DNA from: an uncultured Candidatus Saccharibacteria bacterium
GTDB lineage: Bacteria; Patescibacteriota; CAZHWT01
Reading direction: 5' to 3'
Assembly: GCA_964536215.1 (NCBI GenBank)
Contig: CAZHWT010000002.1
Span: 20,573 to 84,572 of the forward strand
DNA length: 64,000 bases
Of this stretch, positions 23,384-52,893 are shown piece by piece. The first letter of the stretch is position 1, and every line of letters starts with the position of its first letter. The translations under genes and the position numbers were made by a program. The notes under the pieces were generated by a model that had not been told where the DNA came from, searched no databases, and was given only the letters and a program-made list of their open reading frames with translations.

Positions 23384-23983
23384 ATGGCGGGAATGCGCCA
23401 CTGGTTTACAACCTACACCGGAGCTGATTGGACGCCGCAACAATATGGCTATAACAGCCTATTTGCTGAGCATGTCCAGGTCATTCGCGATTATTATCGC
23501 CTCCGTAAACAGCGGCCAGGAGCAGAAATTGGCACTGGATACCGGCGCCAATACTCTCTTCAGGGCAAAGATTGGTCAATCGAAATTACGCGGTTTAGTT
23601 GGGGCAAATATCGCCGAGTTGGGAACGATTTAGTCGATAATGTTGGAGGCGACTACATCACCCCTCACTTGGAGTTGGAGTTTGTCATTTACGATAGCAC
23701 CGGACAGGTATTCATTAGTGATATCCCGATGGTGATCGAATTTGCGCCAGACTTCCCTGCCTCACCACCAAGGTTCCGATTGGATTCAGATCAGTATCGA
23801 GCCTTTAGTGGCACCGATGCCTCTCACCACATCCATAAAGGTGGATGGATGTGCATTATGGGCGGGGGGTACAGCTCTCGCTATACTACTTCGGAATGGA
23901 ATCCTGACGTCGACACTATTCTGGCCGGCCTTCACCGGGCATTTGACTGGATTGTGTGGCATCAGACCAAGTATGGATGGTGA
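23384..23983 (+). CDS. E2-like (UBC-fold) protein, copy 2 (paralog)
   Basis: Alignable to copy 1 (MRHWFTTY.. vs MPYRWFSTY..). Conserved HHIHKGGWMCI. The start is 5 nt after the copy-1 stop. Confidence 0.65.
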   Translation: MAGMRHWFTTYTGADWTPQQYGYNSLFAEHVQVIRDYYRLRKQRPGAEIGTGYRRQYSLQGKDWSIEITRFSWGKYRRVGNDLVDNVGGDYITPHLELEFVIYDSTGQVFISDIPMVIEFAPDFPASPPRFRLDSDQYRAFSGTDASHHIHKGGWMCIMGGGYSSRYTTSEWNPDVDTILAGLHRAFDWIVWHQTKYGW

Positions 23984-23988
23984 CAACC

Positions 23989-25266: not shown

Positions 25267-26134
25267 GCAGCAAAAGCTGCTGGTGCTTGGTCTAGGTAGC
25301 GTCGGTTCGCTATGCGTAAGCAATCTAGCCTACCCATGGCGGCAAATTGTCCTAGCTGACCCAGACACTCTGGAGCCAGAGAACATTGAACGCCATCTGC
25401 TAGGCCACGACGGCAACATCGGTCAACCTAAGGTTGACGGTGTTAAGCGATGGCTCGTAGATCGGGGCATGCAGGAGCAAAATATTACCGCCTATCATGG
25501 TAATGCTCTTGACATTCTTGATCAGCACACAGACGCCGATCTGGTGCTCGTTGCAATTGACAAACGTCGTGTCCGCGATGCAATTAATGGCTGGTGTTAT
25601 TCTCATCGAATCCCAGCTATGTATGGCGGCGTTTATCCTAAAGCCGTCGGTGGGCATATCATGGTTATACCGGATCCCCACCAAGCATGCTATCTGTGCG
25701 CCGAACACCTAATGGGTGGCGATACACAGGATAGCAAGGAGGTTAATTATGCTGTAGATATCACTCAAATTAAAGACGAGAGTGATATGGAGGCGGCTGT
25801 CGCTCTTCGCGCTCCAATCAATGCCATTGCCACTACCATGGCCAATCTGGCACTTGATTTTCTCAAAGGAAGTACGGTAGAATCCCAGGTATTCATTCAG
25901 GTGTTTGCCGAATGGGAAAATATCGTCATGTTGCCTCATCAGCACCCGGTTGTCGAAGCTTCTTCGCACTATGCGGAGCAGCTAAAGAAGACCATGCTGA
26001 TGCCAACAGAGGAGGTTCAAATTGACGGCCAATGGGCCGTTATAAATCGACGTAATACTACGGCTCAGTTGAGCTTGTATCGGTGGGCAAAGTGCCCGCT
26101 TCATCTTGCTCGTGTTGAGCTTGATCAAATTTAG
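25214..26134 (+). CDS. E1-like ThiF/MoeB-family adenylyltransferase
   Basis: Rossmann LVLGLGSVGS...LADPDTLEPENIERHLLG. CxxC near HQACYLCAE. GAAGGAG RBS. Overlaps the JAB gene by 53 nt. Confidence 0.75.
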   Translation: MTMQLYRTQGILDLSQVRQQKLLVLGLGSVGSLCVSNLAYPWRQIVLADPDTLEPENIERHLLGHDGNIGQPKVDGVKRWLVDRGMQEQNITAYHGNALDILDQHTDADLVLVAIDKRRVRDAINGWCYSHRIPAMYGGVYPKAVGGHIMVIPDPHQACYLCAEHLMGGDTQDSKEVNYAVDITQIKDESDMEAAVALRAPINAIATTMANLALDFLKGSTVESQVFIQVFAEWENIVMLPHQHPVVEASSHYAEQLKKTMLMPTEEVQIDGQWAVINRRNTTAQLSLYRWAKCPLHLARVELDQI

Positions 26135-26147
26135 AAAGAGGACAGAC

Positions 26148-26375
26148 ATGGTTAGGGACTTTAGCGCTGAGAATGAAATTCCCGAAGTCGAAGTGATCGA
26201 TCCGGGTGGAGCTCCGCAGGGGCTGGGGAACCGCTTCTTCGGCAATATTCCCGGTTTGGGAACGGTGCAACGGGCTATCCAGCCTGTTGAGATTGTCGAC
26301 GACGAGGGAAGGCCGGCAATGATGCAGGACGACGCTGGCATCCAGGCTGCTTCAAAGCGGCACACGTTTGCCTAA
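26148..26375 (+). CDS. small Gly/Pro-rich, probably disordered protein (75 aa) ending the operon
   Basis: AAGAGGA RBS 6 nt before the ATG. The sequence contains DPGG and low-complexity GLG repeats. Confidence 0.45.
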   Translation: MVRDFSAENEIPEVEVIDPGGAPQGLGNRFFGNIPGLGTVQRAIQPVEIVDDEGRPAMMQDDAGIQAASKRHTFA

Positions 26376-26407
26376 ATCACTGCCACTAGGTAGCAACGCC
26401 CGAGGGA

Positions 26408-26444
26408 TATTCTATATCCCCCGGGCATTTTTTATGCATAAAAA
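26408..26444 (+). terminator. rho-independent terminator of the E2/JAB/E1 operon
   Basis: GCCCGAGGGATATTCTATATCCCCCGGGC hairpin followed by ATTTTTTAT. Confidence 0.6.
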
Positions 26445-26495
26445 ACCGGAGCAGCAGATACATTGACTGTATCCACCGTCTCCGGTTATATACTC

Positions 26496-27788
26496 CTATC
26501 CTCCCGCTCGAGATTGCTTAGCGGCCGTATGGTGTTGCTCAGCCAGCAGCGCCACAAAGGAACGGCGCTCTTGAATGACTTTAACCTTGGCACTTAGGAT
26601 AGCTGCGTCCATCTTTCCGCCGCCTAAGCTGATGTACTCCAGTCTTTCCTCCTCTTTCTGTAATTGTCGAAGCACGTCTTCCGGCATGTCGTAAATAAAC
26701 ATCAGGCAATATTCCCAGGTCTGATCAAAATCAACCTCGAGTTGAATCAAATCTGACTGGACTTTCTCGACCTGAGCTAAGAGAGTTGCCTTGCTATCTC
26801 GCACCATGCTCAACGACTGCTTGGCTTGCTGGATAATTATGTCAGCGTCCACCATGGCTTGGATAGCTTCTTGCCAGTTTTGCGCATCCATACTAATCTC
26901 GTGCTGCAGTTGTGGCAGACGGGACCAGCAGTGGTTTATGACTTCTACTGCTGCCTTGAATATCCGACGTGGTTCCTCAAGGCAAGAGTCTGCATAGATG
27001 TCGGCGATCTCATTGATAACCTGCTCAGTCTGAGGGATATCCTTCACCCGCGCATCAGTCACTTCAGCAATAAACTCGCCAAGCGCCTTTTCGGCCCGCC
27101 CCTTGAACTCCACAAGCTTTTTTATTTTGCGCCGCGTGGCTACGAGGTGCTTGTGGTATTGCTTAGCCAAATCGGCTGCCATAAAAGGGTTCTGGTTCTG
27201 CTCACGAATCGCCTGTTCTAGTAGGTCCTTAGTTCTCAGGCATTCCTGATAAAACGGCTGGACCTGGTATTGCTGTCGAGCCAGTTCGTTTAATTCGCCG
27301 ACAGTCCTATGCAGCAAGTTCTCGGTTACTCGAATAGCTGCTTTTACTTCAACATAAGCAGCAGACAAGTTCTGCATCGCTGCTATTTGCTGCTGCATTG
27401 AGGAAGCCAAATGGACAAAGTTAGTATGGAGTAGTGACGACTTTCTGATCACAGCTTCAAATTGGTATTTTGAAGTAACGCGCCCCTCATTCCACTCTTG
27501 TACGAACTGAGACCAGGAGGTCGCCAATTCGTTATACCTGCGAAGACTGGCACTATACTCAGCCTCTCGCTGAGTAATCATTTCTGAATCGATTTGCAGT
27601 TGGGCCAGTTGATTCCAAGCGTCACGTAATTGTGAGCATAATTGACGAACTTCACGCTCCTTAACTGGAACTGCAACTACTTGTCGTGTCGCAGTCTGAC
27701 GAGCCTGATCAAAGGCTGACCAATTGGTCAGTCCGACCAGGATACCAATAAGCACTACTGCCACCAGTAGTGGAAGCCATATTGCCAT
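26496..27788 (-). CDS. membrane-anchored coiled-coil protein (EzrA-like architecture)
   Basis: N-terminal TM segment (MAIWLPLLVAVVLIGILVGL) followed by ~400 aa of heptad-rich helix. AAGGAGG RBS. Confidence 0.55.
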   Translation of the reverse strand: MAIWLPLLVAVVLIGILVGLTNWSAFDQARQTATRQVVAVPVKEREVRQLCSQLRDAWNQLAQLQIDSEMITQREAEYSASLRRYNELATSWSQFVQEWNEGRVTSKYQFEAVIRKSSLLHTNFVHLASSMQQQIAAMQNLSAAYVEVKAAIRVTENLLHRTVGELNELARQQYQVQPFYQECLRTKDLLEQAIREQNQNPFMAADLAKQYHKHLVATRRKIKKLVEFKGRAEKALGEFIAEVTDARVKDIPQTEQVINEIADIYADSCLEEPRRIFKAAVEVINHCWSRLPQLQHEISMDAQNWQEAIQAMVDADIIIQQAKQSLSMVRDSKATLLAQVEKVQSDLIQLEVDFDQTWEYCLMFIYDMPEDVLRQLQKEEERLEYISLGGGKMDAAILSAKVKVIQERRSFVALLAEQHHTAAKQSRAGG

Positions 27789-27999
27789 TGAACACCTCCT
27801 TGGAAGGCAAGGCTAATCAACGTTGTAAACGTGCTGAGGCTAATAAAAGGCTCAAACGGATTATATCACAAAATACATAATTATAGGGTTTATTTGAATC
27901 GATGAATTATATTTATTAATACTAAGAGTCTCAGTAAAAAATGGCTTCACTGGATATAGTTGTCCAGTGAAGCCATTGGTGGTTAAGCAAGGCTAGCTA

Positions 28000-28167
28000 T
28001 TAGCTCTTCTTGCCACCGTTGTTGCCACCCCCGCCCTTGAGCGAGTCGTGGTGATCTTTCTTTTTCTCAAAGTTTTTAGACTTTGAGGAGTCGTCGGCCT
28101 TTTTTTCTCGGTCTCCTGACTTTTTGTTGCCGAACGGGGTATAGTTGGGTTTAGGCTTGTTTGCCAT
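28000..28167 (-). CDS. small Lys/Gly-rich basic protein (55 aa)
   Basis: AGGAGA RBS before an internal ATG. Ends ...GGGGNNGGKKS. Divergent from the giant gene. Confidence 0.4.
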   Translation of the reverse strand: MANKPKPNYTPFGNKKSGDREKKADDSSKSKNFEKKKDHHDSLKGGGGNNGGKKS

Positions 28168-28473
28168 GCTCCATCTCCTGGAGTATGCGGCAGATACCGC
28201 GCAGTGCTCAGACTCCCTAAGCGAGGCTATGGTACCACAATTATATGTAAAGCACAATAGTAAAACTAAAAGGTTACATTAGCGTAGCGGAAGCTGTTGT
28301 AGGAGTATAACGTCGTGGCTATGATCCGACTAACAATTCTCACACTTATCTTTACCACAGAATATCTCACATGATTGCCGGTGCAAGCTTAAGTGTCGGT
28401 TAGTAAAAGTTTATACTAGTAGCTGTCAAAAGTATTGGACAGAAATTGGCAATGGAATAACGGTCATCTAGCC

Positions 28474-31400
28474 ATGGAATGGCCTCCAGTTCAGATGCTA
28501 TACTTGATTCTAATGTCCTCTGAATTTGGTACACCCCCACCAGATAAACTGCAATTGGTTGAGAAAGCTGACGCTCCTGCATTAAAGCAAGCCCCACTGC
28601 ATACACACCGACCTGTTGAGATTCAACACATCGAGCATAGTACTAATATAGATACTAGCTATGGCGAGAAAACCTGGCATCCATCGCAGTCTATTGTCGA
28701 TTTGCTTCAGAACCACCTCGACGCTAATACTTCTGCCTTTGAAAAGTCACGCCTCAAATTAGTTGGTATATCGGAATACAAACCTGATCAACAGGCCATC
28801 CTGGAGTCAATGTCCCTCTTTGCGGCTGAAACAGATCCTGTCGTCCAAGAAGTACACTTTCATAAGCTTGTGGCGCTACTTGAATCATCCTCTGGCATTA
28901 GCACACTGCTTCAGGATAGCCAACAGAATATGAATGCATTATGGCAGCAGCTTCAAGAGGTAAGGTATGAAGTCCCAGAGCTTAAGCTGAAGCTAAGCAA
29001 CGGCCAAACAAGTAAATTCGTGTCCTATACAGAAGTGGCGACGGAGGACTCCGAATGGCAGGTCGTTGGTTACCTTATAGCAGATAATGGGCCCGGCTTT
29101 GATCATGCGCTGCTTGGCCTGATGGGTGCTACAACTAAAGGCGAAGATGACAATAGACGAGGTGGATTGGGTGAAGGGTTAAAAATGAGCCTAGCCCAGT
29201 TGAATAGGGTTGGCGCGGATGTGCGGATCCTGTCCCGGAATACCGACCAATCGTGGTGGCTTAAGCCCCAGGTTAATGACGGGCTTTTGTCGCTGGATGG
29301 TACGGCTGTCGATCGGAAGCTGACAGTTCAATCGCCATCGGAAGGGTCTCGGACAATGGTTGATCTTAGTCAAGCCAATATGACAGACCTGCAATGGAGA
29401 GAAATTCGGAACATCTTGGATAGTCGAATCTCGCCCGAAGGCATTGCTAAGTATGTCCTGGAGTTCCATCCCGACATAGCCCCAGAAAAGCTCGAAGGCG
29501 ATGCCTTGTTTCAGAATGAAGTGCCAGCTGGGCGGGTGTACGTTAAAGGACTGCTGGTTGAGGAAGATCGGTCAGATTTACTTTGGAGCTACAACTTATC
29601 GGACAAATGGGCCATTTCTGGCCGCGATCGCAAGACGGTTGATGTAGCCATACTTGACGTAGCCATTATCGACAAGTTGACTGACTTGACAGACTACGAG
29701 TCTATCTTGCAGATAGTCCGACTAATGAATGATCCATCCACAGATATCATTCCCCGGGAAGTAAGATGCCTGCGGTTTATCTATAAATTGCCGGAGTCTC
29801 AGCAGTCACTCTGGCGACAGGCAATAGAGGAAGTATTTCATTTTGAGTCAGGTAAGACTGTGTTCTGCCCATCGAATGCCGACTTTGAACATAAACGATT
29901 AGCCGAACAACGCGGCTATACATTGCTGGTCGTCAGGCCAGAGATTTTATCCATGTTATCCATTATTTCCGCAGCCTATGATCCCTCGCCTGTCTATAGA
30001 TTAGATGAACTTGTGAAGCAGCTCACTGCATCGGACGAATCAACTGAAACGATTGATAAAACTTTTAACGCCGTGCTCCATCATATGGTAGAAAGCTATG
30101 CAGCTGATAATCTGGCTACAATCCCGCGCAGTCAATATCAATTAGGCAATCTGTCTTTTGTGCACAAAACAAATAGTAATGCAGATAGATTTATGACCGA
30201 CTTCCCATATTGGGTAGACTGGTATAAGGATACGATCGCAGTTGATACCGACGCCATCTCTAATGGCTTTGCTCGCGATGCCGATTTGCTGCTAGCCACA
30301 GAGATGTTCTTCGAATGGAAATCGTCATTCACTGACGAAGTACAACATGCCTTGGGTCAAATGGTGGCCAGCGCAGTGCTTCGTCATCACCCGGAGCTGT
30401 TCGAAGTGGCGTTGCCAAGTCATATTGCAGAGCGCATTGCTGTAGATGTGCCTAACATTGGCTACACTAATGAACAGCGTCAGAAAGATGCTGTAAAAAT
30501 TGCCTTCGACTACTTAGAAGCACAGCTTTATCATTTAGCAACCGATGAGGACCGCCAGCAATTTCTAGCGTCAATTGAGGCGACCAAGCAGTTATTGGCT
30601 GGGACGGACGCAGATATAGTCAAATCTGTACCACTGTCTTCGTTTATATACCTACCATTTCATGTTGCTGGTCAACTAAAATGGGTTACTGAAGAGCTAG
30701 AGGTAGCTGACAACGCAAAGGATTTTCCATGGCTAAAACTGCGTCGATCGCCGGATGAAATAGATGATTTACAATCCCTTAATTATATGCTCTTGGATAT
30801 ACCTGTAGGGCAATACAAATCCTACGGATATAAGGCCGGCGATCAGAAAGGACGATTGGTTATATCAAGGACGGACTATGGATATAGTGTTGATCGTATC
30901 GAAGATATCCTGACAGCATCTGACACTTCAAGCCACAATCAGGCTGCTATCGATGAAAAGGCCGGGGACAATGTTCAATCGTTTATCTTGGGCGATTTGT
31001 TATATATAAATCTCAATCAGCCGGATGCTCAATTTTATGAAATTCCCACTCCTCAAACTACTCCGCTTCCAGAAAAAAATCGGGGTTTAGAATTTATTTC
31101 GGCTAACACGACGTTAGATTATGGTAGCAAAGTCTGGAGTGATCCCAAGCGCATCCTGATCGATGCTATTCAGAATCATCGTGATGCCAATGGTGGTCAG
31201 CCGCCACGCATTACCTTCCAGATTAGTAATAGCCAGGGCGAGACTATGGATGTAGATATGGCCGCCCTCACTGGCATGCCTTCAGATTGGGTGATTGTGA
31301 GCGTGTCAATTGAAGATCATGGCACGGGATATACCACTCCATATCTGGTGCAAATGGGGAGTAGTACCAAAACTGATGCAGACGCAGGTAAGTTTGGAGA

Positions 31401-32853
31401 GGGGCTGAAGATGTTGACCGCCGCAGCTACGCGCCAGCAGATTGACCTCCGGTTGGAATCTAAGGATTGGCAGGCTTCTCCTACTTCAACAACCGAACAA
31501 GCTATTGACCATGACACTGGTCAGAGTAAACAGTTTGACGTTCTAGCCTATAATCTTAAGTGGTCTGATCGGCCTAGAGATGGATCCATGACCACCTTCT
31601 CTATTTTTAGCAACGGTCACCCCTGGAGCCGCCAGCAATTTGAACAGCTGCAGCGGTCGGAAGAATTGCTTGTGAACGATGCGCATGTACCGCAGCGAAT
31701 CCGAACGTGGCGCCAATGGTTGGACATACTTGATCCTCGCGTTACCGATGCCACCGGAAATACTGGACTGGATAGGTTTGTGTTGCCGGTTGAGTCAGAG
31801 AAATTTTACAACGCATATGTCAGCGTGTTAACAGATCGACCTGGCCAAGTCTTTGAAAAGAATTTGCTTATACCTGACGCTGCTACAAGCCTTAATGGCA
31901 GCAAGCAGCTCATGTTTGGCTATAACTTGCACCAGTCAACCATAAACACGAGAGAGCGAAATGCCATTTCACCAACAGTCTTTAAGGATACTGTTTCCCA
32001 GTATTTTAATCAGGACGCTGGCAGTGTCATCTTTAAGGAGATGCTAAGTAGAGCCAAAGAGGATCCTCAGACTAGTTATTATGAGTATGAGCTTTTAGAA
32101 GAGTCTGACCGTGTGCAGATACTTTTACGGCAGGCCTACTATGACGTCTTTGGTGATGATGCTATTTTGTCTATCGCTAGCATTTCTGAACAACAGCATC
32201 AAGAAGAGTTGATGAAGGTGCATTTAGAGCGAGCTAATACGGTATTCCTACCACCTTTCCTAACAAGGCGGCTCAGTAAGTCGGTTTATACAACGGCTGA
32301 CTATTTCAAGAATTTAGAGGGTAAAGAAGTTGAAGTAACCGATCAAGAGCGCGCTCAGTTGTACACATTAGCTACCCGCGTTAACCAAATTGTTGATGAT
32401 TATTACCGGCAAATGTTAAATGATCCAGACAAGCTGCAGTACCTTAGTAAGGGATGGCTAAAGCTAGGCTATGACCAAGGTGAAGTGGTTGATGTTATCA
32501 GGGATCGACTTGCTCAATTGTCTCAGATGAATGAGCAGGATATTAGAGTTGGCTCTAGTTTAAATCCTCATGGCGGCATGTATAAAACCGGCCAGGATAA
32601 TCGAATTAAAATCGAGGTCAGTCAAGTCTTATTGCATAATCATAAAGCATTTTTGGAGGTCTATCTTCATGAGGTTATTCACCATATGACTGGAGAAAAT
32701 GATTTTGAGTTAGGCTTCGTCCGAGGTTTTGTGGCTTTGGCTATGCAGGCAGATGAGCACGTTCAACGCCTTACGAAAATAGAGCAAAAGGCGCTATCAT
32801 TGCCGTTGATTCGTAAATTTTTGAATGCCAGAACGCGTATCAAGCGAAGATAG
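28474..32853 (+). CDS. giant protein with two tandem GHKL (Bergerat-fold) ATPase-like modules and a C-terminal HExxH motif
   Basis: Motif set 1 is LLQNHLDAN / IADNGPGF / GGLGEGLKM; set 2 is IDAIQNHRDAN / IEDHGTGY / GKFGEGLKM (N-box, G1, G2). C-terminal YLHEVIHHMTGEND. The start is uncertain: TTG at 28435 or ATG at 28474 or 28513. Confidence 0.7.
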   Translation: MEWPPVQMLYLILMSSEFGTPPPDKLQLVEKADAPALKQAPLHTHRPVEIQHIEHSTNIDTSYGEKTWHPSQSIVDLLQNHLDANTSAFEKSRLKLVGISEYKPDQQAILESMSLFAAETDPVVQEVHFHKLVALLESSSGISTLLQDSQQNMNALWQQLQEVRYEVPELKLKLSNGQTSKFVSYTEVATEDSEWQVVGYLIADNGPGFDHALLGLMGATTKGEDDNRRGGLGEGLKMSLAQLNRVGADVRILSRNTDQSWWLKPQVNDGLLSLDGTAVDRKLTVQSPSEGSRTMVDLSQANMTDLQWREIRNILDSRISPEGIAKYVLEFHPDIAPEKLEGDALFQNEVPAGRVYVKGLLVEEDRSDLLWSYNLSDKWAISGRDRKTVDVAILDVAIIDKLTDLTDYESILQIVRLMNDPSTDIIPREVRCLRFIYKLPESQQSLWRQAIEEVFHFESGKTVFCPSNADFEHKRLAEQRGYTLLVVRPEILSMLSIISAAYDPSPVYRLDELVKQLTASDESTETIDKTFNAVLHHMVESYAADNLATIPRSQYQLGNLSFVHKTNSNADRFMTDFPYWVDWYKDTIAVDTDAISNGFARDADLLLATEMFFEWKSSFTDEVQHALGQMVASAVLRHHPELFEVALPSHIAERIAVDVPNIGYTNEQRQKDAVKIAFDYLEAQLYHLATDEDRQQFLASIEATKQLLAGTDADIVKSVPLSSFIYLPFHVAGQLKWVTEELEVADNAKDFPWLKLRRSPDEIDDLQSLNYMLLDIPVGQYKSYGYKAGDQKGRLVISRTDYGYSVDRIEDILTASDTSSHNQAAIDEKAGDNVQSFILGDLLYINLNQPDAQFYEIPTPQTTPLPEKNRGLEFISANTTLDYGSKVWSDPKRILIDAIQNHRDANGGQPPRITFQISNSQGETMDVDMAALTGMPSDWVIVSVSIEDHGTGYTTPYLVQMGSSTKTDADAGKFGEGLKMLTAAATRQQIDLRLESKDWQASPTSTTEQAIDHDTGQSKQFDVLAYNLKWSDRPRDGSMTTFSIFSNGHPWSRQQFEQLQRSEELLVNDAHVPQRIRTWRQWLDILDPRVTDATGNTGLDRFVLPVESEKFYNAYVSVLTDRPGQVFEKNLLIPDAATSLNGSKQLMFGYNLHQSTINTRERNAISPTVFKDTVSQYFNQDAGSVIFKEMLSRAKEDPQTSYYEYELLEESDRVQILLRQAYYDVFGDDAILSIASISEQQHQEELMKVHLERANTVFLPPFLTRRLSKSVYTTADYFKNLEGKEVEVTDQERAQLYTLATRVNQIVDDYYRQMLNDPDKLQYLSKGWLKLGYDQGEVVDVIRDRLAQLSQMNEQDIRVGSSLNPHGGMYKTGQDNRIKIEVSQVLLHNHKAFLEVYLHEVIHHMTGENDFELGFVRGFVALAMQADEHVQRLTKIEQKALSLPLIRKFLNARTRIKRR

Positions 32854-33543: not shown

Positions 33544-33576
33544 CAAATAAATACCCATTTAAATAGCCATTTATTA
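33544..33576. repeat. dispersed element CAAATAAATACCCATTTAAATAGCCATTTATTA
   Basis: Member of the 6-copy family, immediately downstream of the 33590-34903 gene. Confidence 0.7.
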
Positions 33577-36127: not shown

Positions 36128-36277
36128 ACGAGAGCTCCTCAATCAGCTTATCACACTTCTAAAATACGCCTGACCATGTTCGGGTATTATTCGCCTAAAC
36201 CGTTTAACCGTCAACAGCCAACCTAAGAATTGCACAGTTAATTCCATAATGACTTCAAATCCACTCAGGCAAATCAA

Positions 36278-36324
36278 CAAACAGGTAAGCCAGGTGTCCA
36301 GAGATAAACACCTGGAAGGTGGTG
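36278..36324 (+). repeat. partial copy of the modular intergenic repeat (M3 module ending ACCTGGAAGGTGGT)
   Basis: aacaggtaagccaggtgtccagagataaacacctggaaggtggt. Confidence 0.6.
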
Positions 36325-36369
36325 CATTGAAATTCATCGAAAATAATTAGTACAATACAAGCACAAAAA

Positions 36370-36564
36370 GACGCCGGCAGTCCTGGAGGACAGCCCACGT
36401 CTTTTTTAGTATCCACACCATTTCAAGTCAATATCCAATTACGTACGCACACGTGTACATACTAACTTGGAAGCATCTGAGAAGTATAATCAAAACCACC
36501 CACCTCCCAAGTGAATAGTTTAGTGGGTGGAATAGGTGTTCTGAGGCAATCTCCGGAAGATGGT
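36370..36564 (+). repeat. modular intergenic repeat copy A (M1 hairpin/T-run, degenerate GTACGTAC box, M3)
   Basis: Alignable to the copies at 37299, 39158, 39937, 41094 and 41824. Confidence 0.65.
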
Positions 36565-36667
36565 TTGCATACTAATAGCCTTACTGTTGACAATGCGAGT
36601 ATAATAAAATCAAACATTGTCAATCGTGGCAATGTTAAGTCGATCAGAGAGCCAAGGAGAGAACAAA

Positions 36668-36874
36668 ATGAGCTCTAAAGATCCTGGTGACACGCGTGAG
36701 ACAGTCGATCGCAATGGCGATGTTGAAACAACTTTCAAGGTCGGCTACAGCTACGACAAACAAGACGACACTCAAGACTTCGTTATTATCGACCATAGTG
36801 CCACAGACGGTGGACATGCACACGTCGTGTTCGACTCTGACGGTAACGAGATCTACAACGACACAGAGGATTGA
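36668..36874 (+). CDS. small acidic hypothetical protein (68 aa)
   Basis: AAGGAGA RBS before the ATG at 36668. Confidence 0.45.
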   Translation: MSSKDPGDTRETVDRNGDVETTFKVGYSYDKQDDTQDFVIIDHSATDGGHAHVVFDSDGNEIYNDTED

Positions 36875-36941
36875 GCCTCTGAAGCTTCATAAATCTGTGG
36901 CCATGTCTATAGACTGGCCACATTTCTTTTAGGAGGACAGC

Positions 36942-37241
36942 ATGACCCAACTCCCAGTAACCATCGAACCTTGTAATAACATAAAAGAGCTTACTAAACA
37001 TTTACGTCATTCGTTAACCCTACTACCAGAAAGTGACGAGCAGGAAATCGCTCATACTATGGTGGCACAAATTATTGCCGCCAAGCACGACGAATGGTGG
37101 AGAGGAGAAAGCCCTGTCTATCCACAACTAGCCCAAGCTGCTGAATTACTGATTCATCTCGAAACTCCAGACGGTAATCAGCAGCAGAGGCAACAGCAAT
37201 GGGATACTGTTAACAGTATCCTTAAAGCTATAGAAACCTAA
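36942..37241 (+). CDS. hypothetical protein
   Basis: AGGAGG RBS, 99 aa. Confidence 0.5.
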   Translation: MTQLPVTIEPCNNIKELTKHLRHSLTLLPESDEQEIAHTMVAQIIAAKHDEWWRGESPVYPQLAQAAELLIHLETPDGNQQQRQQQWDTVNSILKAIET

Positions 37242-37298
37242 AAGCACAAAGGGTCAGAAAAAATCTGACCCTTTGCATTAATCAGTTTTGCCCAAAGA

Positions 37299-37444
37299 GA
37301 TGCCGGCAATCCTGGAGGACAACCCGCGTCTTTTTAGTATCTACACCCATCCGACAGCTTCTTTTGCCCAAATATGAACAATTGACCATAGAACAATAAG
37401 GCGGGCAGGCTAGGTGCTCTGAGATAGCTACCTGGAAGGTGGTA
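37299..37444 (+). repeat. modular intergenic repeat copy F (M1 + M3, no GTACGTAC box)
   Basis: gatgccggcaatcctggaggacaacccgcgtcttttt ... atatgaacaattgaccatagaacaataaggcgggcaggctaggtgctctgagatagctacctggaaggtggta. Confidence 0.65.
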
Positions 37445-37591
37445 CACCGACACAGAAAAATATAAAAAGGTTGACTTATAAGACCCATAGTAATATAATA
37501 ACCAACACTAAAAACTCGAATCGGCCAAAAGCGTAATGGACTCTGCCATTATTAAAGGATACAAGGCAACGAATATCTACAAATTCTGCAT

Positions 37592-38338
37592 ATGAACCTG
37601 AAGTCAATAATTCATAAACCTAAACGAATCGTAACTGTTAGCTTGATATTGCTGGCCGTCATTTCAATAGTCTTGTATGCTGGGGTTAAAATAATGTATT
37701 TTCCCGGTTCAACTACGAACCAGGAACCAAGCATCCAGAAACAGACTATAAGTAAAACCAAACTACCGGAGAAATCAGTCAGCGAAAACATTACTCAAGA
37801 GTCTGGTCCAGCCGTGGTCAAATTGCCCGATGATCGGACTGGCGTGGGTGCTGAGAGTTTTCAGTCCACGGATGAAACTGTTACAGACTGGTGTGCTTCT
37901 ACTTGCACCTTTACGGACTCCAACGGTGACTATACTGATATTCATTGTTACCAATACTCGAATTCATGTTCAGCGCATAACTCCAATGGGGATTACGTAA
38001 ATATCTATTGCTATCAGTATTCAAACTCGTGTTCAGCTTATGGATCCGATGGTAGTAGCGCTACTTCACATTGCTATCCCAATTTAAATTCATGCTCGAC
38101 CTATGGATCAGATGGCTCATATAGCAATACACATTGCTATACCTACTCCAACACCTGCGGTACAACGGGATCCGATGGCAATTACTCTACCACTCATTGT
38201 TATTCATACACAAATAGTTGTACCACTCATGATTCAGATGGCTCATATACAAATACCTATTGCTATTCATATACCAGTTCCTGTAGTTCGTACAGCTATG
38301 GCAGCAACAATTACGACTATTCTTACTTAGATTACTGA
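37592..38338 (+). CDS. secreted/membrane-anchored Cys-rich tandem-repeat protein
   Basis: N-terminal TM/signal. About 8 tandem ~21-aa units of consensus SDGSY(S/T)NTHCY.YSN.C.T.G. Confidence 0.6.
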   Translation: MNLKSIIHKPKRIVTVSLILLAVISIVLYAGVKIMYFPGSTTNQEPSIQKQTISKTKLPEKSVSENITQESGPAVVKLPDDRTGVGAESFQSTDETVTDWCASTCTFTDSNGDYTDIHCYQYSNSCSAHNSNGDYVNIYCYQYSNSCSAYGSDGSSATSHCYPNLNSCSTYGSDGSYSNTHCYTYSNTCGTTGSDGNYSTTHCYSYTNSCTTHDSDGSYTNTYCYSYTSSCSSYSYGSNNYDYSYLDY

Positions 38339-38540
38339 TATATCTACAAAAATGGCTAGCATTGCTCATAAAATTGCTGCTCTAAAATCAGGCAAATAAT
38401 GACGCAATCAAAAGTAAACTATAGTGGCTAGCATCACAACAGATTTTATGTGCCGTTCAGTAGTATAGATATACAACTGGAAGGTGATACAAAGCCGGTA
38501 AGTCAAACTAAATCCGGATTTAAGTAAGAGCGAGGCTCAC

Positions 38541-38825
38541 TTATCTGCTGCGCTTGTATACCTCACTTCTATGCCGCACGGTTAACAAATAAATAGTTCG
38601 ACCATCTAAATCAAAAGTAATCCGATATGGATCAATTCTCCAGCGATATTGACCAAAATTAAAATTTTTAAGCGGTTTGGCTAAAGATATTGGACCAACA
38701 TGTTGTTCCAACTCTTTCAACTTTTTAACCAATTGACGCTGAACCTTGCCATCCAAGGCTTGCACATCCTTATTAAATTGGGCAGTGGTAAGGATTGTAT
38801 AGTTATTCTCTAATGAGGTGGCCAA
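38541..38825 (-). CDS. RelE/ParE-family type II toxin
   Basis: C-terminal region WRIDPYRITFDLDGRTIYLLTVRHRSEVYK. The start is uncertain: TTG at 38825 gives 95 aa, while the track ORF extends to 38927 with a 125-nt antitoxin overlap. Confidence 0.55.
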   Translation of the reverse strand: MATSLENNYTILTTAQFNKDVQALDGKVQRQLVKKLKELEQHVGPISLAKPLKNFNFGQYRWRIDPYRITFDLDGRTIYLLTVRHRSEVYKRSR

Positions 38826-39075
38826 AGGCTTGGTCGAGGGTGTAAGTCCTACCTTCTTCGACGTCTTTCCGCGCTTGGGCGATTGATTCGACATAGGTTT
38901 TGTCATGCAATTCCAATAAATCCTCAAGTAAGTCTGTATTAATCAAGGCAATAGCGGTTTTCTTATGGCGCTTAATTAAGGTTACCCCATCTTGCTCGGC
39001 CATATCTAACACACTAGATAAATTGTTCCGCACTTCAGTAGCTCCCACCACCTTAGTTACTTTTCCCTCAGACAT
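38803..39075 (-). CDS. Phd/YefM-family antitoxin
   Basis: The start MSEGKVTKVVGATEVRNNLSSVLDMAE... is typical of Phd/YefM. GGAGG RBS. Confidence 0.7.
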   Translation of the reverse strand: MSEGKVTKVVGATEVRNNLSSVLDMAEQDGVTLIKRHKKTAIALINTDLLEDLLELHDKTYVESIAQARKDVEEGRTYTLDQAFGHLIRE

Positions 39076-39157
39076 ATACACCTCCAGTGTCTTTGCTAAT
39101 TAGACATAATGTACGTTAATTATGTACATTTGTCAATAAAATATATCCCCAATAGTC

Positions 39158-39350
39158 TGGAGGTAAGCACAAAATCAAGTACGTACACATGTACGTACAC
39201 GTTTACGTACTAATCTACAAGCAGCTGAGAAGTATAAACAAAACCATACCTCCGATGGTTTCCTCTGCCAGAATATGAACATCTAATCCTAGAGCAATAA
39301 TGGACAAGCTAGGCGTCATGAGGTAAACACCAACTAGATGCTAGTGATCA
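39158..39350 (+). repeat. modular intergenic repeat copy B
   Basis: Contains GTACGTACACATGTACGTACACGTTTACGTAC (39179-39210) and a degenerate M3. Confidence 0.65.
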
Positions 39351-39436
39351 CAAATGCTAAGGGGGACTATTGCAGCCTGCCTGATGACTCCAGGAGAGCT
39401 AAGTGGTATTCTCCGCGCGTGACTAAAAGAAACCGC

Positions 39437-39814
39437 ATGGGAAAAACAATTATACCCTTTGGGGTTTACCCGGAAAAACATGAGCTAACTACGGCCGCGG
39501 TTTTTCTTAAGCAGGGGTTCGATGTCGAGTTTATCAAGCCCAAACGAACCAAAGGAGCCAAAAATACTGATATGAGGTTTAATGGAGTAGATTGGGAGGC
39601 CAAGAGTCCATTAGGCAACGGCAAGAAAACAGTGGAGAAACAGCTCCAGCGGGCAGGAAAACAATCTAAGAATATCATCATCGACAGCCGGGGAACAAAA
39701 CTAGATGACGAATACCTGGAAAAAGAGTTACGCAAAAAGTACGCACTCGTCCGATCGATCAAAAAGTTAATATTAATCAAGAAGACGGGTGATACTGTTG
39801 AATTTAACCGTTAA
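39437..39814 (+). CDS. hypothetical basic protein; possible PD-(D/E)xK-like nuclease motif (TD...EAK)
   Basis: ORF in the cassette array. The start was chosen downstream of the repeat remnant; the track ORF begins at 39338, inside the repeat. Confidence 0.4.
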   Translation: MGKTIIPFGVYPEKHELTTAAVFLKQGFDVEFIKPKRTKGAKNTDMRFNGVDWEAKSPLGNGKKTVEKQLQRAGKQSKNIIIDSRGTKLDDEYLEKELRKKYALVRSIKKLILIKKTGDTVEFNR

Positions 39815-39936
39815 ATATGCTACAAATAGACCATAAGCAAGCCACGGCAGTGTTGAATTACACAGCCCTGGCTTTCTTTTTTGTGCCGACATAAATCAAC
39901 ACGATTAAGAGACTCGTCCTTTCAACGGAAAACAAA

Positions 39937-40178
39937 CAGCTCGCCAGATAGCGATTAATAGATGGAGTATATCACTTTATCCTCAACGATCAGCAGGCAA
40001 GCACGAAATCTCGTACGTACACATGTACGTACACGTTTACGTACTAATCTAGAAGCAGCTGGGAAACAGAGATAAAACCATACACCTCAGACGGTTTCCT
40101 CTGCCAGGATATGAACATCTAACTATAGAACAATAACAGGCAGGCTACGTGTTCTGCGATAACCACCTGGAAGGTGGT
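39937..40178 (+). repeat. modular intergenic repeat copy C (most complete)
   Basis: CAGCTCGCCAGATAGCG leader, GTACGTAC box at 40013-40044, and M3 ending ACCTGGAAGGTGGT. Confidence 0.7.
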
Positions 40179-40245
40179 ATATATTCAAAACATCAGCTGA
40201 GGCAGACTAAGGATCAGGAGGTAAATGTCTAGAAGATTGGCAGTG

Positions 40246-40752
40246 TTAATCCTCAGGCAACAACTCCTCATCCTTAGCCTTAATTCGATTAGACTCTTTA
40301 GACTTTTGACTATAAAAATTATAAATCAAAATAGCTGCTTGGCCCAAAACGAGAGCAAAGCCAGCTACATTTTGACCATTGAGAATTAATACAAAGCCGC
40401 CAATTATCATAAATGAGGCTAAAATAAACGCTAATACTACTCCCAATCTCTCATTCGTTATATTACTTTGAACAACTTTGCTTTCCAGGCTCATTCGGTG
40501 AGTCGTCTGCATCATAGCCTGATTCACAATCTTCTTAGCGGCGCCTGGATATACTCGGTCATAACCAGCCAATATTTGAGGAGGAGGTAATGGCCCACTA
40601 AACTGTTCACCTGTAACAACCAATTCATGCAGAAGCTTTTGCTTCTTATCAGATGGAAGATTATCACTATCAAGTATGGAAGCTACAGTTTCCTCGACAG
40701 AATGCTTTTTATCAGCATGCAAGCCAGGTTTATTCTTAGAGTCAGATGCCAA
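40246..40752 (-). CDS. DUF2335-like membrane protein (phage-associated family)
   Basis: SGPLPPPQILAGYDRVYPG motif and two C-terminal TM helices. TTG start. Confidence 0.55.
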   Translation of the reverse strand: MASDSKNKPGLHADKKHSVEETVASILDSDNLPSDKKQKLLHELVVTGEQFSGPLPPPQILAGYDRVYPGAAKKIVNQAMMQTTHRMSLESKVVQSNITNERLGVVLAFILASFMIIGGFVLILNGQNVAGFALVLGQAAILIYNFYSQKSKESNRIKAKDEELLPED

Positions 40753-40795
40753 TGATTGTAATCTGCTATCGCTAGCATTATTTGTGTCGTTCGTA

Positions 40796-41044
40796 TTAAG
40801 GCATAAACTTATTTATAGAGCTATATAGACTGCGGCCAACTATCTGCCAGTCTCTCCGTATAGCCTTTGCATCAGCCTCCTTAGAAGAGGCGCTATAGTT
40901 ATATTTAGTTATCTGACCATAGAGGTCTAGTACTCTTGCAACGCCTCGCAAAAGAGATGGATTATTGTAAAGCCTAGAGGAAGTGTATGTTAAATTCTGC
41001 ATATATAAAGTATAGCTGATACATGTCAGTTTGCTAACAAGCAA
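40796..41044 (-). CDS. hypothetical protein
   Basis: 82-aa ORF. Confidence 0.3.
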   Translation of the reverse strand: MLVSKLTCISYTLYMQNLTYTSSRLYNNPSLLRGVARVLDLYGQITKYNYSASSKEADAKAIRRDWQIVGRSLYSSINKFMP

Positions 41045-41093
41045 TTAACTCTTATTATAGACTTGAGTGTCAAGTTGTTAGCATTAATTAGTT

Positions 41094-41282
41094 CTCAACA
41101 ATCAGCAGCCAAGCTCAAAATCTAGTACGCACACGTGTACGTACTAACCTAGAAGCAGCTGAGAAGTATAAAAAAATCATACGCCTCTCCCAGCCGGTTT
41201 CTTCTACCAAATCTAAACTCTTAGCCATTGGGTAGTAACAGGCAGACTAGATGTTCCGAGATAACTATCTAGTAGATAGTAC
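41094..41282 (+). repeat. modular intergenic repeat copy D
   Basis: AGTACGCACACGTGTACGTACT box at 41124-41145. M3 variant. Confidence 0.65.
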
Positions 41283-41362
41283 ATTTCACAAATTGACAGT
41301 AACCTATAGTGTATGTATAATGCACTAGTTGCATTTGTTACCAACAAAAGGAGAAGTAAGTG

Positions 41363-41677
41363 ATGAATGACTTTCCTATCGCTGTACAGAATGCAGTTGA
41401 TGCGACAAAAGAGCTGTGGAGACTGGCACGCAAATTCAAATCAAAGCAAGACAGGTTGGACAAGATTTACGCAAAAGCAGCTCGCGGCGAACGGCTTATT
41501 GAGACAGATTGGAGAGACCTGCTCAATATCCAAGATTCGATGGCCAGATATATCGCATATCGAGACGCCGTCAAGACTATTATTGGCGATGAAATACTAA
41601 CCGATGTCGCCAATGAGTTAGGCTTAGCAGAGACGAATATCCCAGAAGATATGTGGGGAATGCTCGGCAAATTGTGA
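41363..41677 (+). CDS. hypothetical protein
   Basis: AAGGAG RBS 9 nt before the ATG. Confidence 0.5.
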   Translation: MNDFPIAVQNAVDATKELWRLARKFKSKQDRLDKIYAKAARGERLIETDWRDLLNIQDSMARYIAYRDAVKTIIGDEILTDVANELGLAETNIPEDMWGMLGKL

Positions 41678-41766
41678 TTAAAACATCGAAAAAGAGAGTT
41701 CTCCTACAACCACCTTCACTTGCAGCCAGGCCATTGTGCCTGGCTGTTTCTAGCTGCTTTCTCTCT

Positions 41767-41798
41767 CAAATAAATATCCATTTAAATAGCCATTTATC
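41767..41798. repeat. dispersed element CAAATAAATATCCATTTAAATAGCCATTTATC
   Basis: Member of the 6-copy family. Confidence 0.7.
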
Positions 41799-41823
41799 TC
41801 ATTATCCTTTCAACCAAAATAAA

Positions 41824-42033
41824 AAGCTGGCCAGATAGCGAACAGTAAGCAAATTATAACACTTCATTCCCAACATCCATAGGCAGGCGCAAAACTAAGT
41901 ACGTACACATGTACGTACACGTTTACGTACCAACCTAGAAGCAGCTGATTAGTGTAAACAAAACCATACATCTGCCCCGTGATTAGTTTAGCAGGCAGAC
42001 TAGGTGTTCTGAGTAAGTGCCTGGAAGGTGGTG
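41824..42033 (+). repeat. modular intergenic repeat copy E
   Basis: GCTGGCCAGATAGCG leader, GTACGTAC box at 41899-41930, and M3 ending GCCTGGAAGGTGGTG. Confidence 0.7.
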
Positions 42034-42232
42034 AATACTATAGCTGCGCTTGCATCCCATAAGTAGACCGAGGAATGCCAGTCCAGTTGCTAAACAGTAG
42101 ATCTTTACTATATAAGCTATTTATGCTCGACTTTAAACTGGGGAGGAAGGAGTCTAACGCAATCAAGAAGAGCGGGGTGCAATAGAAGCTCTGGTATAAC
42201 GCCAGAGCTTCATAGTGCAATTCAACCTCAGC

Positions 42233-43343: not shown

Positions 43344-43911
43344 GATTTACTTGTACACCCTGAAAGTAAGATATGTCAAGTATGTACAAAAAGTAATGTG
43401 GAACTTTGGAACATTATTTAACTGGAGGTAGATATAGATTCGGAATCCCGTTGCAGCAAAAACTTAGCTAATCGTCTAGTAACACAGATCGGGTGTCTGA
43501 AGCTATCCAAATCTTAAGCAAAATGTACCTCAATCGATTAAAGCGTAGAAGATTCTAAATGCACGACCGAATTGATGTTAAAGAGAAAGACAAACCGGAG
43601 CAACTATGTAATAAATAATCTTTTGGTAGAAACATTAATATTAAATGCGACTGATTCAGAATAATCGGTTGATGCCCTACTGTTGTGGTAAGAACGAAAA
43701 AAATCCGCTCAATCGACCGAAATGCAGTGTGACTAGGCTAAGATTATTGGGTTAAATAGCAGCTACTTTAAAAATTAACTCCGGCTTCATCAAAATCATT
43801 CTTCAACAGAGTTTCTAGCTTGAAAATTAAACTTATCTGCCATCTAGTTGCCGAATAAGTTCCGTGCAGGCCCATAGCTCTCAATCGTCCTACACCCAAT
43901 TATGCGCTCTG

Positions 43912-43984
43912 TGGAGATGACGGGAGTCGAACCCGTTCCTCTCTCTTGATAAGAGAGTGATCTAACCGCTAATTCTACATCCCC
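43912..43984 (-). tRNA. tRNA-like gene with atypical anticodon loop UUAUCAA (apparent anticodon ATC)
   Basis: Canonical T-arm (ACGGG-TTCGACT-CCCGT), a 7-bp acceptor stem, GG in the D-loop, and an A.A mismatch in the D-stem. No encoded CCA. Confidence 0.55.
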
Positions 43985-50587: not shown

Positions 50588-50626
50588 AAATAGGCATTTA
50601 AATAGGCATTTAAATGCCTATTTATT
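50588..50626. repeat. dispersed element AAATAGGCATTTAAATAGGCATTTAAATGCCTATTTATT
   Basis: Direct plus inverted copies of the GGCATTTAAAT unit. Confidence 0.7.
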
Positions 50627-51969: not shown

Positions 51970-51989
51970 GTACGTACACGTGTACGTAC
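51970..51989. promoter_or_regulatory. perfect 20-bp palindrome GTACGTACACGTGTACGTAC (GTACGTAC box)
   Basis: The same box recurs in the cassette-array repeats at 39-42 kb. Confidence 0.6.
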
Positions 51990-52646
51990 TTATGGCATAA
52001 GCCGCAGTAGTAGTAACAAAACAATATCAATCCCTAGTGACAAACACATCCATAGTACGGCTTGGATAAAAACTGGTTGGAGTGAGGTCAACATAACTGG
52101 TAACCAGTCAAAAGTTGGCCATAAACCAGCCCAATACAGCAGTGCGCCCACAGCTGCTAATCCAACAAATAGTGTAAGAGCACCCTCCATGTCTGCTCTA
52201 CTGGTAAATAGTGTATTGCTAACTTCAAAAACAGCATACCCAATAATCAGCCACCCCAGCCAACTCTGGAAAAAATGATAGTGTTCCGCCAACCACATGA
52301 TAGCTAAAATAGTTGTCAGACCTACATATACCGGCGCAGCGCCCATTAAAAAACGCCGTATCAAATCCGTTTTTGGCACCATCACGCTACCTAGGATAAT
52401 TCTTTCACCTTCAATCTTTGGCACAATTGTCAGTCTCTGCGTATTTACTAGTAACGCTCGCCCAACGAGCAGATGAGACAACTCGTGGACCAGTACGCCG
52501 GGCAAGTACAGCACTGACATAACTCGCACAACCGCCGATTGCCGCCTAAACAGCCTCATAAGAACCATCCCTAGCCTCCGTTCGACTGACCTCGACAATA
52601 AAAATAACAACAAAATTTGTCCTAGCAATATCAAGGCGTACATCAT
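51990..52646 (-). CDS. polytopic membrane protein with HExxH (site-2-protease / M50-like) motif
   Basis: VLVHELSHLLVG sits within a hydrophobic segment. Confidence 0.5.
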   Translation of the reverse strand: MMYALILLGQILLLFLLSRSVERRLGMVLMRLFRRQSAVVRVMSVLYLPGVLVHELSHLLVGRALLVNTQRLTIVPKIEGERIILGSVMVPKTDLIRRFLMGAAPVYVGLTTILAIMWLAEHYHFFQSWLGWLIIGYAVFEVSNTLFTSRADMEGALTLFVGLAAVGALLYWAGLWPTFDWLPVMLTSLQPVFIQAVLWMCLSLGIDIVLLLLLRLMP

Positions 52647-52893
52647 CACATATCAGTATACTGCACTAACGGTCAAGCTAGGTGGTCGAGTAGCCCACCT
52701 CGCAGGTGGATGGAATAAGCAAAGAAACTATAAATATATAGTAAATACCGGATAAGAATTTAAAGGCGAGTTTGGTTGAGCTAGTTAAATATAAAATGAC
52801 GGGGCAGCTATAATGCTGCCCCAAAACGATTCACAAAACTATTAATAAGACCGTTGTAGACTTAGTCAAAGGAAGGCATGAAAAAGGCGCTGC

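Follow-up and report, generated by a model that had tools for sequence, protein, structure and literature searches.

Location and composition of the array

The window analyzed here is a 64,000-nt stretch of DNA from an uncultured Candidatus Saccharibacteria bacterium (contig CAZHWT010000002.1). Between 36.2 and 42.1 kb it contains an array in which small, unrelated gene modules are separated by copies of a mosaic, non-coding repeat of roughly 200 bp (~180-270 bp), and this repeat is our subject. The array occupies an island of low GC content, with values of 0.41-0.43 over 34-46 kb compared with 0.47-0.50 elsewhere in the window. The modules are 0.5-1.7 kb in length, and three of the seven lie on the strand opposite to the repeats. 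Pfam searches identified a ParE/Phd pair (− strand), a protein with a CdiA_C-like domain, DUF2335 (− strand) and DUF2188 with DUF3892 (− strand), in agreement with the gene calls of an earlier note made from the sequence. The array is flanked on the left by genes for a RhuM-Fic protein and a DUF2130 protein, and on the right by one for an MmeI-family restriction-modification enzyme.

There are six composite copies of the repeat, all intergenic and all on the + strand, as first described. Sensitive self-blastn gives pairwise identities of 70-87% over 100-190 nt, with E values down to 3e-45, and hidden Markov models (HMMs) made module by module recover every composite copy (nhmmer, E = 1e-9 to 1e-26). 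With a degenerate 20-mer that represents the GTAC box (described below), 10 matches are obtained in the window where 0.00 are expected. The similarity extends over ~150 nt beyond this box, and the possibility raised beforehand, that it might be confined to short low-complexity stretches, does not hold. The repeat is a genuine family.

Organization of the repeat

Read 5' to 3' on the + strand, the element comprises a terminator block (M1 or M0), a set of GTAC units followed by an AT-rich box (M2), an optional linker of 55 nt, and a core of 45 nt, the last two making up M3. The most complete is copy 4 (39917-40185), in which an M0 of 83 nt (39917-39999) is followed by M2 (40001-40090) with three 12-bp units GTACGTACAC[AG]T and then CTAGAAGCAGCTGAGAAG-TATAAA-CAAAACCATAC. 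The 55-nt linker, ATATGAACATCTAA...TAGAACAATAA, forms the upstream half of M3 (40083-40136), and the core (40139-40185) reads AACAGGCAGG-CTAGGTG-TTCTGAGATAAC-CACCTGG-A-AGGTGG-T. M2 sequences contain two or three GTAC units with a period of 12 bp, which together form a palindrome of 20-60 nt. The conserved AT box, CTAGAAGCAGCTGAGAAG-TATAAA, is located ~24 nt after this palindromic block, and resembles a weak promoter without a −35 element. In copy 4 this box is mutated.

The remaining copies are different combinations of the same parts. Copy 1 (36361-36571) has M1 (36361-36419, a hairpin plus T6), M2 with two GTAC units (36428-36508), a short linker and the core (36526-36571). Copy 2 (37290-37450) has M1 (37290-37347), the upstream half of M3 (37346-37399) and the core (37404-37450), and M2 is wholly missing. 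Copy 3 (39144-39349) begins with the tail of M0, followed by M2 with three GTAC units (39167-39254), the upstream half of M3 (39247-39300) and a divergent core (39303-39349) with CTAG/CTAG/CTAG hairpins. Copy 5 (41083-41287) likewise has the M0 tail, then M2 with two units (41109-41189), the upstream half of M3 (41187-41238) and the core (41241-41287). In copy 6 (41805-42039) a full M0 (41805-41885) precedes M2 with three units (41886-41976), a short linker and the core (41994-42039).

The division into M1, M2 and M3 that had been proposed thus stands in outline. However, M1 is present in copies 1 and 2 only, and the upstream half of M3 is found as described in four copies, with a 17-nt linker taking its place in copies 1 and 6. 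M0 had gone unnoticed; it is full-length in copies 4 and 6, and some of the other copies hold only its last 25 nt. The right edge is identical in all copies (...AAGGTGGT, followed by R), while the left edges are ragged. The presence and absence of modules among the copies is reticulate, implying that exchange has occurred between them. No conserved open reading frame (ORF) was found within the element. A minus-strand frame of 10 codons recurs, but a 1-nt indel disrupts it in copy 5. We considered a small toxic peptide of a type I toxin-antitoxin system and rejected it, because this unconserved frame is the only one that recurs.

Partial copies were sought using R1, a covariance model of the 45-nt core. 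It finds ten cores in the window, eight of them inside the 6-kb array and all eight on the + strand. A lone core (36284-36330, +; nhmmer E = 6.7e-13, R1 51.9 bits) opens the array; it precedes the divergent RhuM-Fic gene by 155 nt, and ~35 nt separate it from the M1 of copy 1. A degraded fragment at 38450-38495 (+), between the Cys-repeat gene discussed below and the 3' end of ParE, retains both hairpins of the core; it scores 35 bits with R1 but was part of the training alignment, and was also returned as family D7 of the repeat search. A degenerate second core (40201-40246, +; R1 21.6 bits, E = 0.0027; nhmmer E = 0.016) begins 16 nt beyond copy 4.

The other 58 kb of the window contain three partial copies. 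The core at 17907-17953 (− strand; nhmmer E = 7e-6, also found by blastn and by sequence) is 110 nt upstream of a co-oriented gene encoding 223 aa. The second is a lone GTAC palindrome, GTACGTACACGTGTACGTAC (51970-51989), with a hairpin of −13.6 kcal/mol (z = −3.8), and the third is a diverged core at 52672-52717 (+), CTAGGTGG...CCACCT CGC AGGTGG, which was outside the training set and has an R1 score of 16.9 bits (E = 0.034). These last two bracket a minus-strand membrane-protein gene (51990-52649); the GTAC box abuts its stop codon, and 23 nt separate the core from the start of this gene, which is divergent from it. The arrangement gives the impression of a single gene placed between the two halves of one element. 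Two of the isolated modules listed in the earlier note, at 36278 and 51970, are real, while for a third, at 48689, the match covers 14 nt and is not significant (E = 3.6). Its list of partial copies was incomplete, as the sequences at 17907-17953, 38450-38495, 40201-40246 and 52672-52717 had been overlooked.

The core can form two alternative hairpins

The sequence CACCT(GG) of the core can pair in two directions. With (CT)AGGTG upstream it forms P1, a 7-bp helix with a conserved 12-nt loop TTCTGAGATAAC, and with AGGTGG downstream it forms P2, a 6-bp helix with a triloop. The two are mutually exclusive. In an alignment of nine copies P1 is 84% paired, compared with 24-43% for slid controls, and P2 is 85% paired, compared with 28-53%. 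The covariation in P2 was reached by only 1-2 of 500 shuffles; that in P1 is weak, and was reached by 26 of 500. In the core of copy 5 all three hairpin segments are altered together (CTAGAT / ATCTAG / TAGATAG), and the same is true of the core at 17907-17953 (AGGTC / GGACTT / AGGTCT). Both helices are perfect in the core at 52672. Such covariation among copies within one genome favors the pairing of nucleic acid over a sequence recognized by protein. The reliably aligned cells of P2 include six G.U pairs and no A.C pairs, which points to the + strand as the likely folding strand. This is the sense strand of the next downstream gene in five cases, four in the array and one at 17953. A possible long-range helix closing the variable linker (CTGCC/GGCAG) can be drawn in most copies, but in shifted registers and with no support from RNAalifold, and we do not claim it.

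The concerted changes bear on whether the element has any function. It might be a relic, in which gene conversion or serial segmental duplication spread an ancestral intergenic region as the intervening genes were replaced, and the hairpins would be inherited remnants of terminators. The copies are 13-30% diverged, variably truncated and mosaic, several carry changes that would disable them (copy 4 in its AT box, and also the fragments at 38450 and 40201), and no relative was found in any collection searched. Yet the three hairpin segments change together in several copies, some of which are outside the array, and about 1.4 kb of repeat has been retained in a compact, gene-dense region. Moreover, the genes between the copies are unrelated, so that no duplication of a gene-plus-spacer unit is visible. 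We regard a functionless relic as improbable.

Two mutually exclusive hairpins also recall the logic of a T-box, and the core might be a minimal tRNA-sensing leader. The P1 loop would then offer GAU-A to the anticodon loop of a tRNA-Asp(AUC) encoded 1.9 kb from the array, and the 3' GGUGGUA(C) would pair with the ACCA end, choosing between P1 and P2. The loop has G-A/G-U/C-A with invariant G and A, and is GAUA in six of the ten copies; as GAUAA it is complementary over 5 nt to UUAUC of the tRNA anticodon loop. The repeat also contains a GGUGGUAC segment, and AAGGUGGUAC of copy 2 resembles the T-box core, GGGUGGUACC. However, the Rfam T-box model (RF00230) gave no match to 300-nt stretches even at E<=10, and there is no Stem I architecture, terminator U-run or start codon after the Shine-Dalgarno-like segment. 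Complementarity over 5 nt would arise by chance with a probability of a few percent, and UGGU occurs in only five or six of the ten copies. Of all the explanations considered this is the one to which we give least credence. The tRNA-Asp gene itself (43911-43984, − strand) lies inside the low-GC island. It scores 51 bits with the Rfam tRNA model, and CCA is not encoded. A tRNA-Asp with an anticodon AUC of the unmodified-A34 type is very unusual. A duplicated 3' end of this gene that might mark an attachment site of the island was looked for, and none was found.

Terminator-like hairpins and GTAC boxes in the left half

The hairpins of M1 have calculated folding energies of −21.5 kcal/mol (z = −5.4, copy 1) and −15.9 kcal/mol (z = −2.2), and are preceded by an A-run and followed by T5-6. 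M1 therefore has the stable, GC-containing hairpin and T-run of an intrinsic terminator. M0 has no significant hairpin when its folding is compared with that of shuffled sequences. The GTAC palindromes form hairpins of −13.6 to −20.3 kcal/mol (z = −1.3 to −3.8), which on the minus strand have a T-rich tail after the hairpin and are scored as terminator-like in a scan. A plausible additional role of the GTAC palindrome is thus that of a terminator hairpin. A similar context is found in another phylum. The AT-rich Parcubacteria metagenome-assembled genome RS_13_30 contains the exact 20-mer GTACGTACAC[AG]TGTACGTAC three times (L016 7853, L021 236 and L025 4753), each flanked by A-runs and T-runs in the manner of a bidirectional terminator, and one of these loci lies between convergent gene ends. 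One of the three is just upstream of an AbrB-like small gene.

As a lead only, the GTAC units may alternatively be protein-binding sites. YefM operators consist of paired TGTACA hexamers 12 bp apart, center to center (PMC1802561). M2 contains hexamers with one mismatch, CGTACA and TGTACG, with a period of 12 bp, and the array includes a Phd/YefM-ParE pair. The half-sites of M2 differ from those operators in that they abut (TGTAC/GTACA) as two or three tandem units placed 24 nt upstream of an AT box. The promoter of the toxin-antitoxin module has TGTACG and TGTACA 13 bp apart, overlapping the −10 box, and a relative on contig L037 has the same arrangement.

This leads to a further explanation, that the copies are a paralogous family of genes for small RNAs. 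M2 would serve as promoter and its GTAC units as the operator for an activator or for Phd/YefM, and a trans-acting RNA of ~110-130 nt would end at P2. The placement of the conserved AT box after the block of palindromic iterons is consistent with this, as are the 3' end sharply set by a hairpin, the preference of the wobble pairs for the + strand and the likeness to YefM operators. But there is no U-tail after P2 and no −35 element, the promoter part is missing from copy 2 and from the lone cores, the folding is no more stable than that of shuffled sequence, and there is no relative in Rfam. In addition, the half-sites abut, whereas 13 bp separate those in the operator of the toxin-antitoxin module itself, and the same palindrome appears terminator-like in another phylum. 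Small RNA genes seem to us improbable, to about the same degree as a relic.

Gene modules and their promoters

The earlier note placed each copy 80-150 nt upstream of a different small gene. Four of the six do have a co-oriented gene within 150 nt (gene starts 36668, 37592, 39338 and 41360), but ParE/Phd, DUF2335 and DUF2188/DUF3892 are on the opposite strand, and copies 4 and 6 face the 3' ends of the convergent genes DUF2335 and DUF2188/DUF3892 respectively. In two of these four, a separate sigma-70 promoter for the gene intervenes between it and the repeat. One lies between copy 2 and the Cys-repeat gene (37592-38338), at 37471-37499 (+), with the sequence TTGACT-17-TATAAT matching 11 of 12 positions of the consensus. 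The other, TTGACA-17-TATAAT at 41293-41321 (+), matches all 12 and lies between copy 5 and a gene for 105 aa (41360-41677). The ParE/Phd(YefM) module (38541-39136, − strand), assigned by Pfam, has a promoter at 39136-39108 with the sequence TTGACA-17-TACATT. The idea of one shared promoter or leader for each gene therefore fits four of the copies in position, and is weakened by these promoters.

Regions of this kind have been described as putative mobile promoters, where homologous upstream regions precede non-homologous genes in one genome (Matus-Garcia et al. 2012, PMC3488235). The present repeat is likewise homologous DNA upstream of non-homologous genes, but no more than four of its six copies are followed by a co-oriented gene, canonical promoters are found between repeat and gene, and the promoter-like box of the repeat itself is weak. 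Several modules have their own terminators as well as promoters, as judged from the sequence and from a promoter scan. The modules are thus expression units complete in themselves and the repeat is not just their promoter, and this autonomy makes a role at the boundary more plausible than that of promoter for each gene.

The Cys-repeat gene encodes a secreted or membrane protein of 248 aa with no Pfam family. At 37913-38285 it contains an internal tandem repeat of 63 nt (21 aa), with ~62% identity at the nucleotide level, in which Cys, Tyr and Ser are abundant (C-Y-x-Y-S-N-S-C...G-S-D-G-S-Y). The gene has been split differently by gene callers across assemblies, although the DNA is identical.

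A proposed boundary and leader element

We slightly favor an interpretation, though with rather less than even confidence, in which the element is a lineage-specific transcription boundary and leader module that has been copied between accreted gene modules. Each copy would stand as a boundary and leader between independently expressed, horizontally accreted modules. Its left half would halt read-through from both directions, and we infer that a + strand transcript, either weak or regulated, may start at the AT box. In this RNA the P1/P2 switch would then decide whether transcription proceeds into the next module. The array of direct repeats would have been left behind as modules accreted through recombination or duplication between copies. 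This explains the internal composition of the element, the strand bias of the wobble pairs and the occurrence of box and core singly beside ordinary genes.

A number of observations weigh against it. The AT box has no recognizable −35 element on either strand and is destroyed in copy 4, and two full copies lack a co-oriented downstream gene. Copy 2 has no M2 and is situated behind terminators, and so may not be transcribed. The missing U-run after P2 means that P2 is not a canonical terminator. The folding energies of the whole element are the same as those of shuffled sequences (z = −1.0 to +1.0). The covariation was measured on 9-10 related sequences from a single genome, and related sequences can exceed shuffles without structure. 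Lastly, a single orientation of the repeat whatever the orientation of the genes arises more naturally from recombination, considered below.

Distribution of the repeat and its relation to known mosaic elements

Searches beyond the window returned no relative of the repeat. In Rfam only tRNAs reach the gathering score, with nothing relevant at E<=5 over the array or at E<=10 on single copies. Exact degenerate patterns for the M2 junctions gave no matches in genome, viral or metagenome contigs. A GTAC-box pattern that matches every copy in the window has none in viral contigs and 15 in genomes, about the number expected by chance, and nhmmer with all module profiles detected nothing past the box at these 15 loci. 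The plasmid and phage collections contain no match. Within the genome, metagenome, viral, plasmid and phage collections searched, the family is thus new. This accords with the earlier failure to recognize a known attC site, miniature inverted-repeat transposable element (MITE) or structured RNA family, as there are no terminal inverted repeats and no GTTRRRY/RYYYAAC cores in the repeat.

Looking for related arrays by way of the encoded proteins yielded little, and relatives are very rare. Homologs of RhuM-Fic with 60-77% identity are found in unrelated contexts, one of them inside a type IV secretion element; among these, only L035, the one with 77% identity, is preceded by a weak core-like sequence. 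For Phd there is a single relative, on L037 (72%), where homology of the toxin-antitoxin module stops at the −35 box and the stop codon and the flanks differ. The 223-aa gene has no relatives, and a metagenome scan with its protein was empty.

The same strain is present in Logan, where contigs from more than 10 runs are 100% identical to the window and colinear with it; only this one strain is represented. The contigs end inside repeats, at 36287, 39206 (the GTAC box of copy 3) and 41901 (copy 6), and extension past the window is halted where contigs stop at another repeat. The element evidently breaks short-read assemblies at these points, which explains the fragmentation of the island in public assemblies.

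As a non-coding, intergenic sequence of recombining modules that include hairpins, the repeat belongs to a kind already known, the lineage-specific mosaic intergenic repeat exemplified by the BIMEs of Escherichia coli, the pneumococcal BOX elements with their A-B-C modules and the NIMEs of Neisseria (RS/dRS3). All share interchangeable modules and a variable number of internal units, here two or three GTAC units. The cassette-like array is an unusual variant of this kind. The NIMEs of Neisseria also form arrays, adjacent to gene cassettes that are small or silent, and have been proposed to favor exchange by recombination. There is, however, no sequence similarity to any of these, the copies in the window are concentrated in an island in one orientation, and they have neither dRS3-like inverted repeats nor the REP tetranucleotide.

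Such elements suggest that the repeat could be a non-autonomous transposable element, of MITE or REP/BIME type, that inserts into intergenic DNA. Its modular, hairpin-rich composition is that of a BIME or BOX element, there are partial copies elsewhere in the window, and assemblies break at the copies. Yet a search for terminal inverted repeats and target-site duplications found none, and eight of the ten cores are within 6 of the 64 kb, all in the same orientation. No transposase or RAYT-like gene was found in the window, and the plasmid and phage collections lack matches. A transposable element of this type is very hard to reconcile with these findings, and we give it scarcely more weight than the T-box-like sensor. 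Both of these, together with small RNA genes and a relic, are less likely than either the boundary and leader element or the recombination site to which we now turn.

The palindrome is also shared by long tandem arrays on L029 (500-6700; Paenibacillus gallinarum), L026 and L024. These consist of at least 17 units of 264-355 nt that are nearly free of ORFs. Each unit has a GTAC/ACGT palindrome (CTACACGTACGTATACGTGTACGTACGTGTAA) plus several further conserved blocks, and the window element shares the palindrome only. Homology was rejected because the profile of the unit matches the window only at the box. On the reverse strand these units may encode short peptides starting MDD...

Comparison with integron cassette arrays

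In its architecture the array is like that of a chromosomal integron. An attC site is an imperfect palindrome that spans ~57-141 nt and carries the boxes R''(RYYYAAC)/R'(GTTRRRY) and L''/L'. Clusters of attC sites that lack the integron integrase (IntI, a tyrosine recombinase) are termed CALINs, so that only a complete integron needs IntI beside the array. The repeat might be an attC analog, in which the unit is a gene module with the repeat that follows it and a recombinase encoded elsewhere cuts beside the terminal hairpin, immediately after AAGGTGGT. The array would then be CALIN-like, with the lone core at 36284 as attI, and the two places where a core is followed after 16-35 nt by the next copy (36330 and 40185) would be empty cassettes.

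This gives a better account of the features of the array as a whole than does a boundary element, namely their uniform orientation, the sharpness of the right edge, the 'empty' units and the truncation of the first site. The copies are uniformly oriented although three of the seven modules are inverted, and a sharp right boundary (AAGGTGGT followed by R in most copies when checked as for attC) is coupled with ragged left boundaries. The modules are of suitable size, and one is an inverted ParE/Phd pair with its own promoter. Such an inverted toxin-antitoxin module is typical of chromosomal integron arrays. The array lies within a low-GC island, the terminal hairpin is kept as structure and not as sequence, and the orthologous toxin-antitoxin module on L037 has other flanks, with homology ending at its −35 box and stop codon.

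Other properties are not those of attC sites. The repeat, at 180-270 bp compared with about 60-140 bp, is two to four times the length of attC. It has no RYYYAAC/GTTRRRY cores and is not an end-to-end imperfect palindrome; an inverted-repeat search shows pairing between its two ends in one copy only. The apparent folding strand is, for most ORFs, the top strand, and GC skew does not identify it with the lagging-strand template. Pfam found no tyrosine or serine recombinase (integrase or resolvase), HUH enzyme or transposase among window ORFs of at least 150 aa, nor an integrase, resolvase or transposase among all ORFs of the array, and the IntI gene was not found in the 64 kb. Integron cassettes are mostly promoterless and co-oriented with their sites, while here there are three module promoters and three of seven modules on the opposite strand. 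The independent assemblies show no sign of mobility, all being identical and colinear, although these represent one strain. The integron-like character, which the earlier note proposed beside a moron-like system and shared promoter/leader elements, thus holds for the architecture of the array, in the orientation of the repeats, the size of the modules, the inverted toxin-antitoxin pair and the sharp 3' edge, and fails for the recombinase and the promoters.

On balance a site of cassette recombination is unlikely, if the strongest of the alternatives. A more specific proposal is that the array is a new gene-cassette capture system, an analog of the integron in a poorly sampled lineage. A recombinase encoded elsewhere would recognize the covarying terminal hairpin, and the terminators and operator-like iterons of the element would insulate each captured module. 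We think this a little less likely again. To our knowledge nothing of the cassette-array kind has been described in this lineage. The boundary and leader element and the recombination site are mutually compatible, and sequence alone cannot separate them.

Other features of the region

A second repeat family is based on the 12-mer AAATAGCCATTT, which occurs in direct and inverted pairs and as the full palindrome AATAAATAGCCATTTAAATGGCTATTTATT, with 19 matches compared with 2.2 expected. Its sites in the window are 37-66, 17003-17038, 18346-18369, 33549-33576, 41772-41799 and 50588-50623, and on L037 they are 83-110 and 828-862. It is identical at 30 of 30 positions in L037, whose coding DNA is only 67% identical, and it flanks the toxin-antitoxin module there on both sides. 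Logan contigs also end at this repeat. A terminator, a site for the binding of protein and an uptake-type signal are all conceivable.

PADLOC detected no known defense proteins among the modules of the array. Upstream of the island, at 23956-32853, an E1-like gene of the ThiF family is accompanied by several genes that belong to no Pfam family and by one for a protein of 1472 aa. The last has weak matches to HATPase_c and SprT-like domains, and was itself negative in the PADLOC scan. This may be another defense-type cluster.

Implications

If the boundary and leader interpretation is correct, a single reusable non-coding module, combining terminators, a weak promoter and a hairpin switch, would shield horizontally acquired gene modules from mutual interference. 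It would be a natural insulator part, and would provide a handle on the way in which small genomes domesticate foreign genes. If instead the recombination interpretation is correct, this would be a cassette-array system that has neither an integron integrase nor attC sites. On either interpretation the element is useful as a clean, lineage-specific marker.

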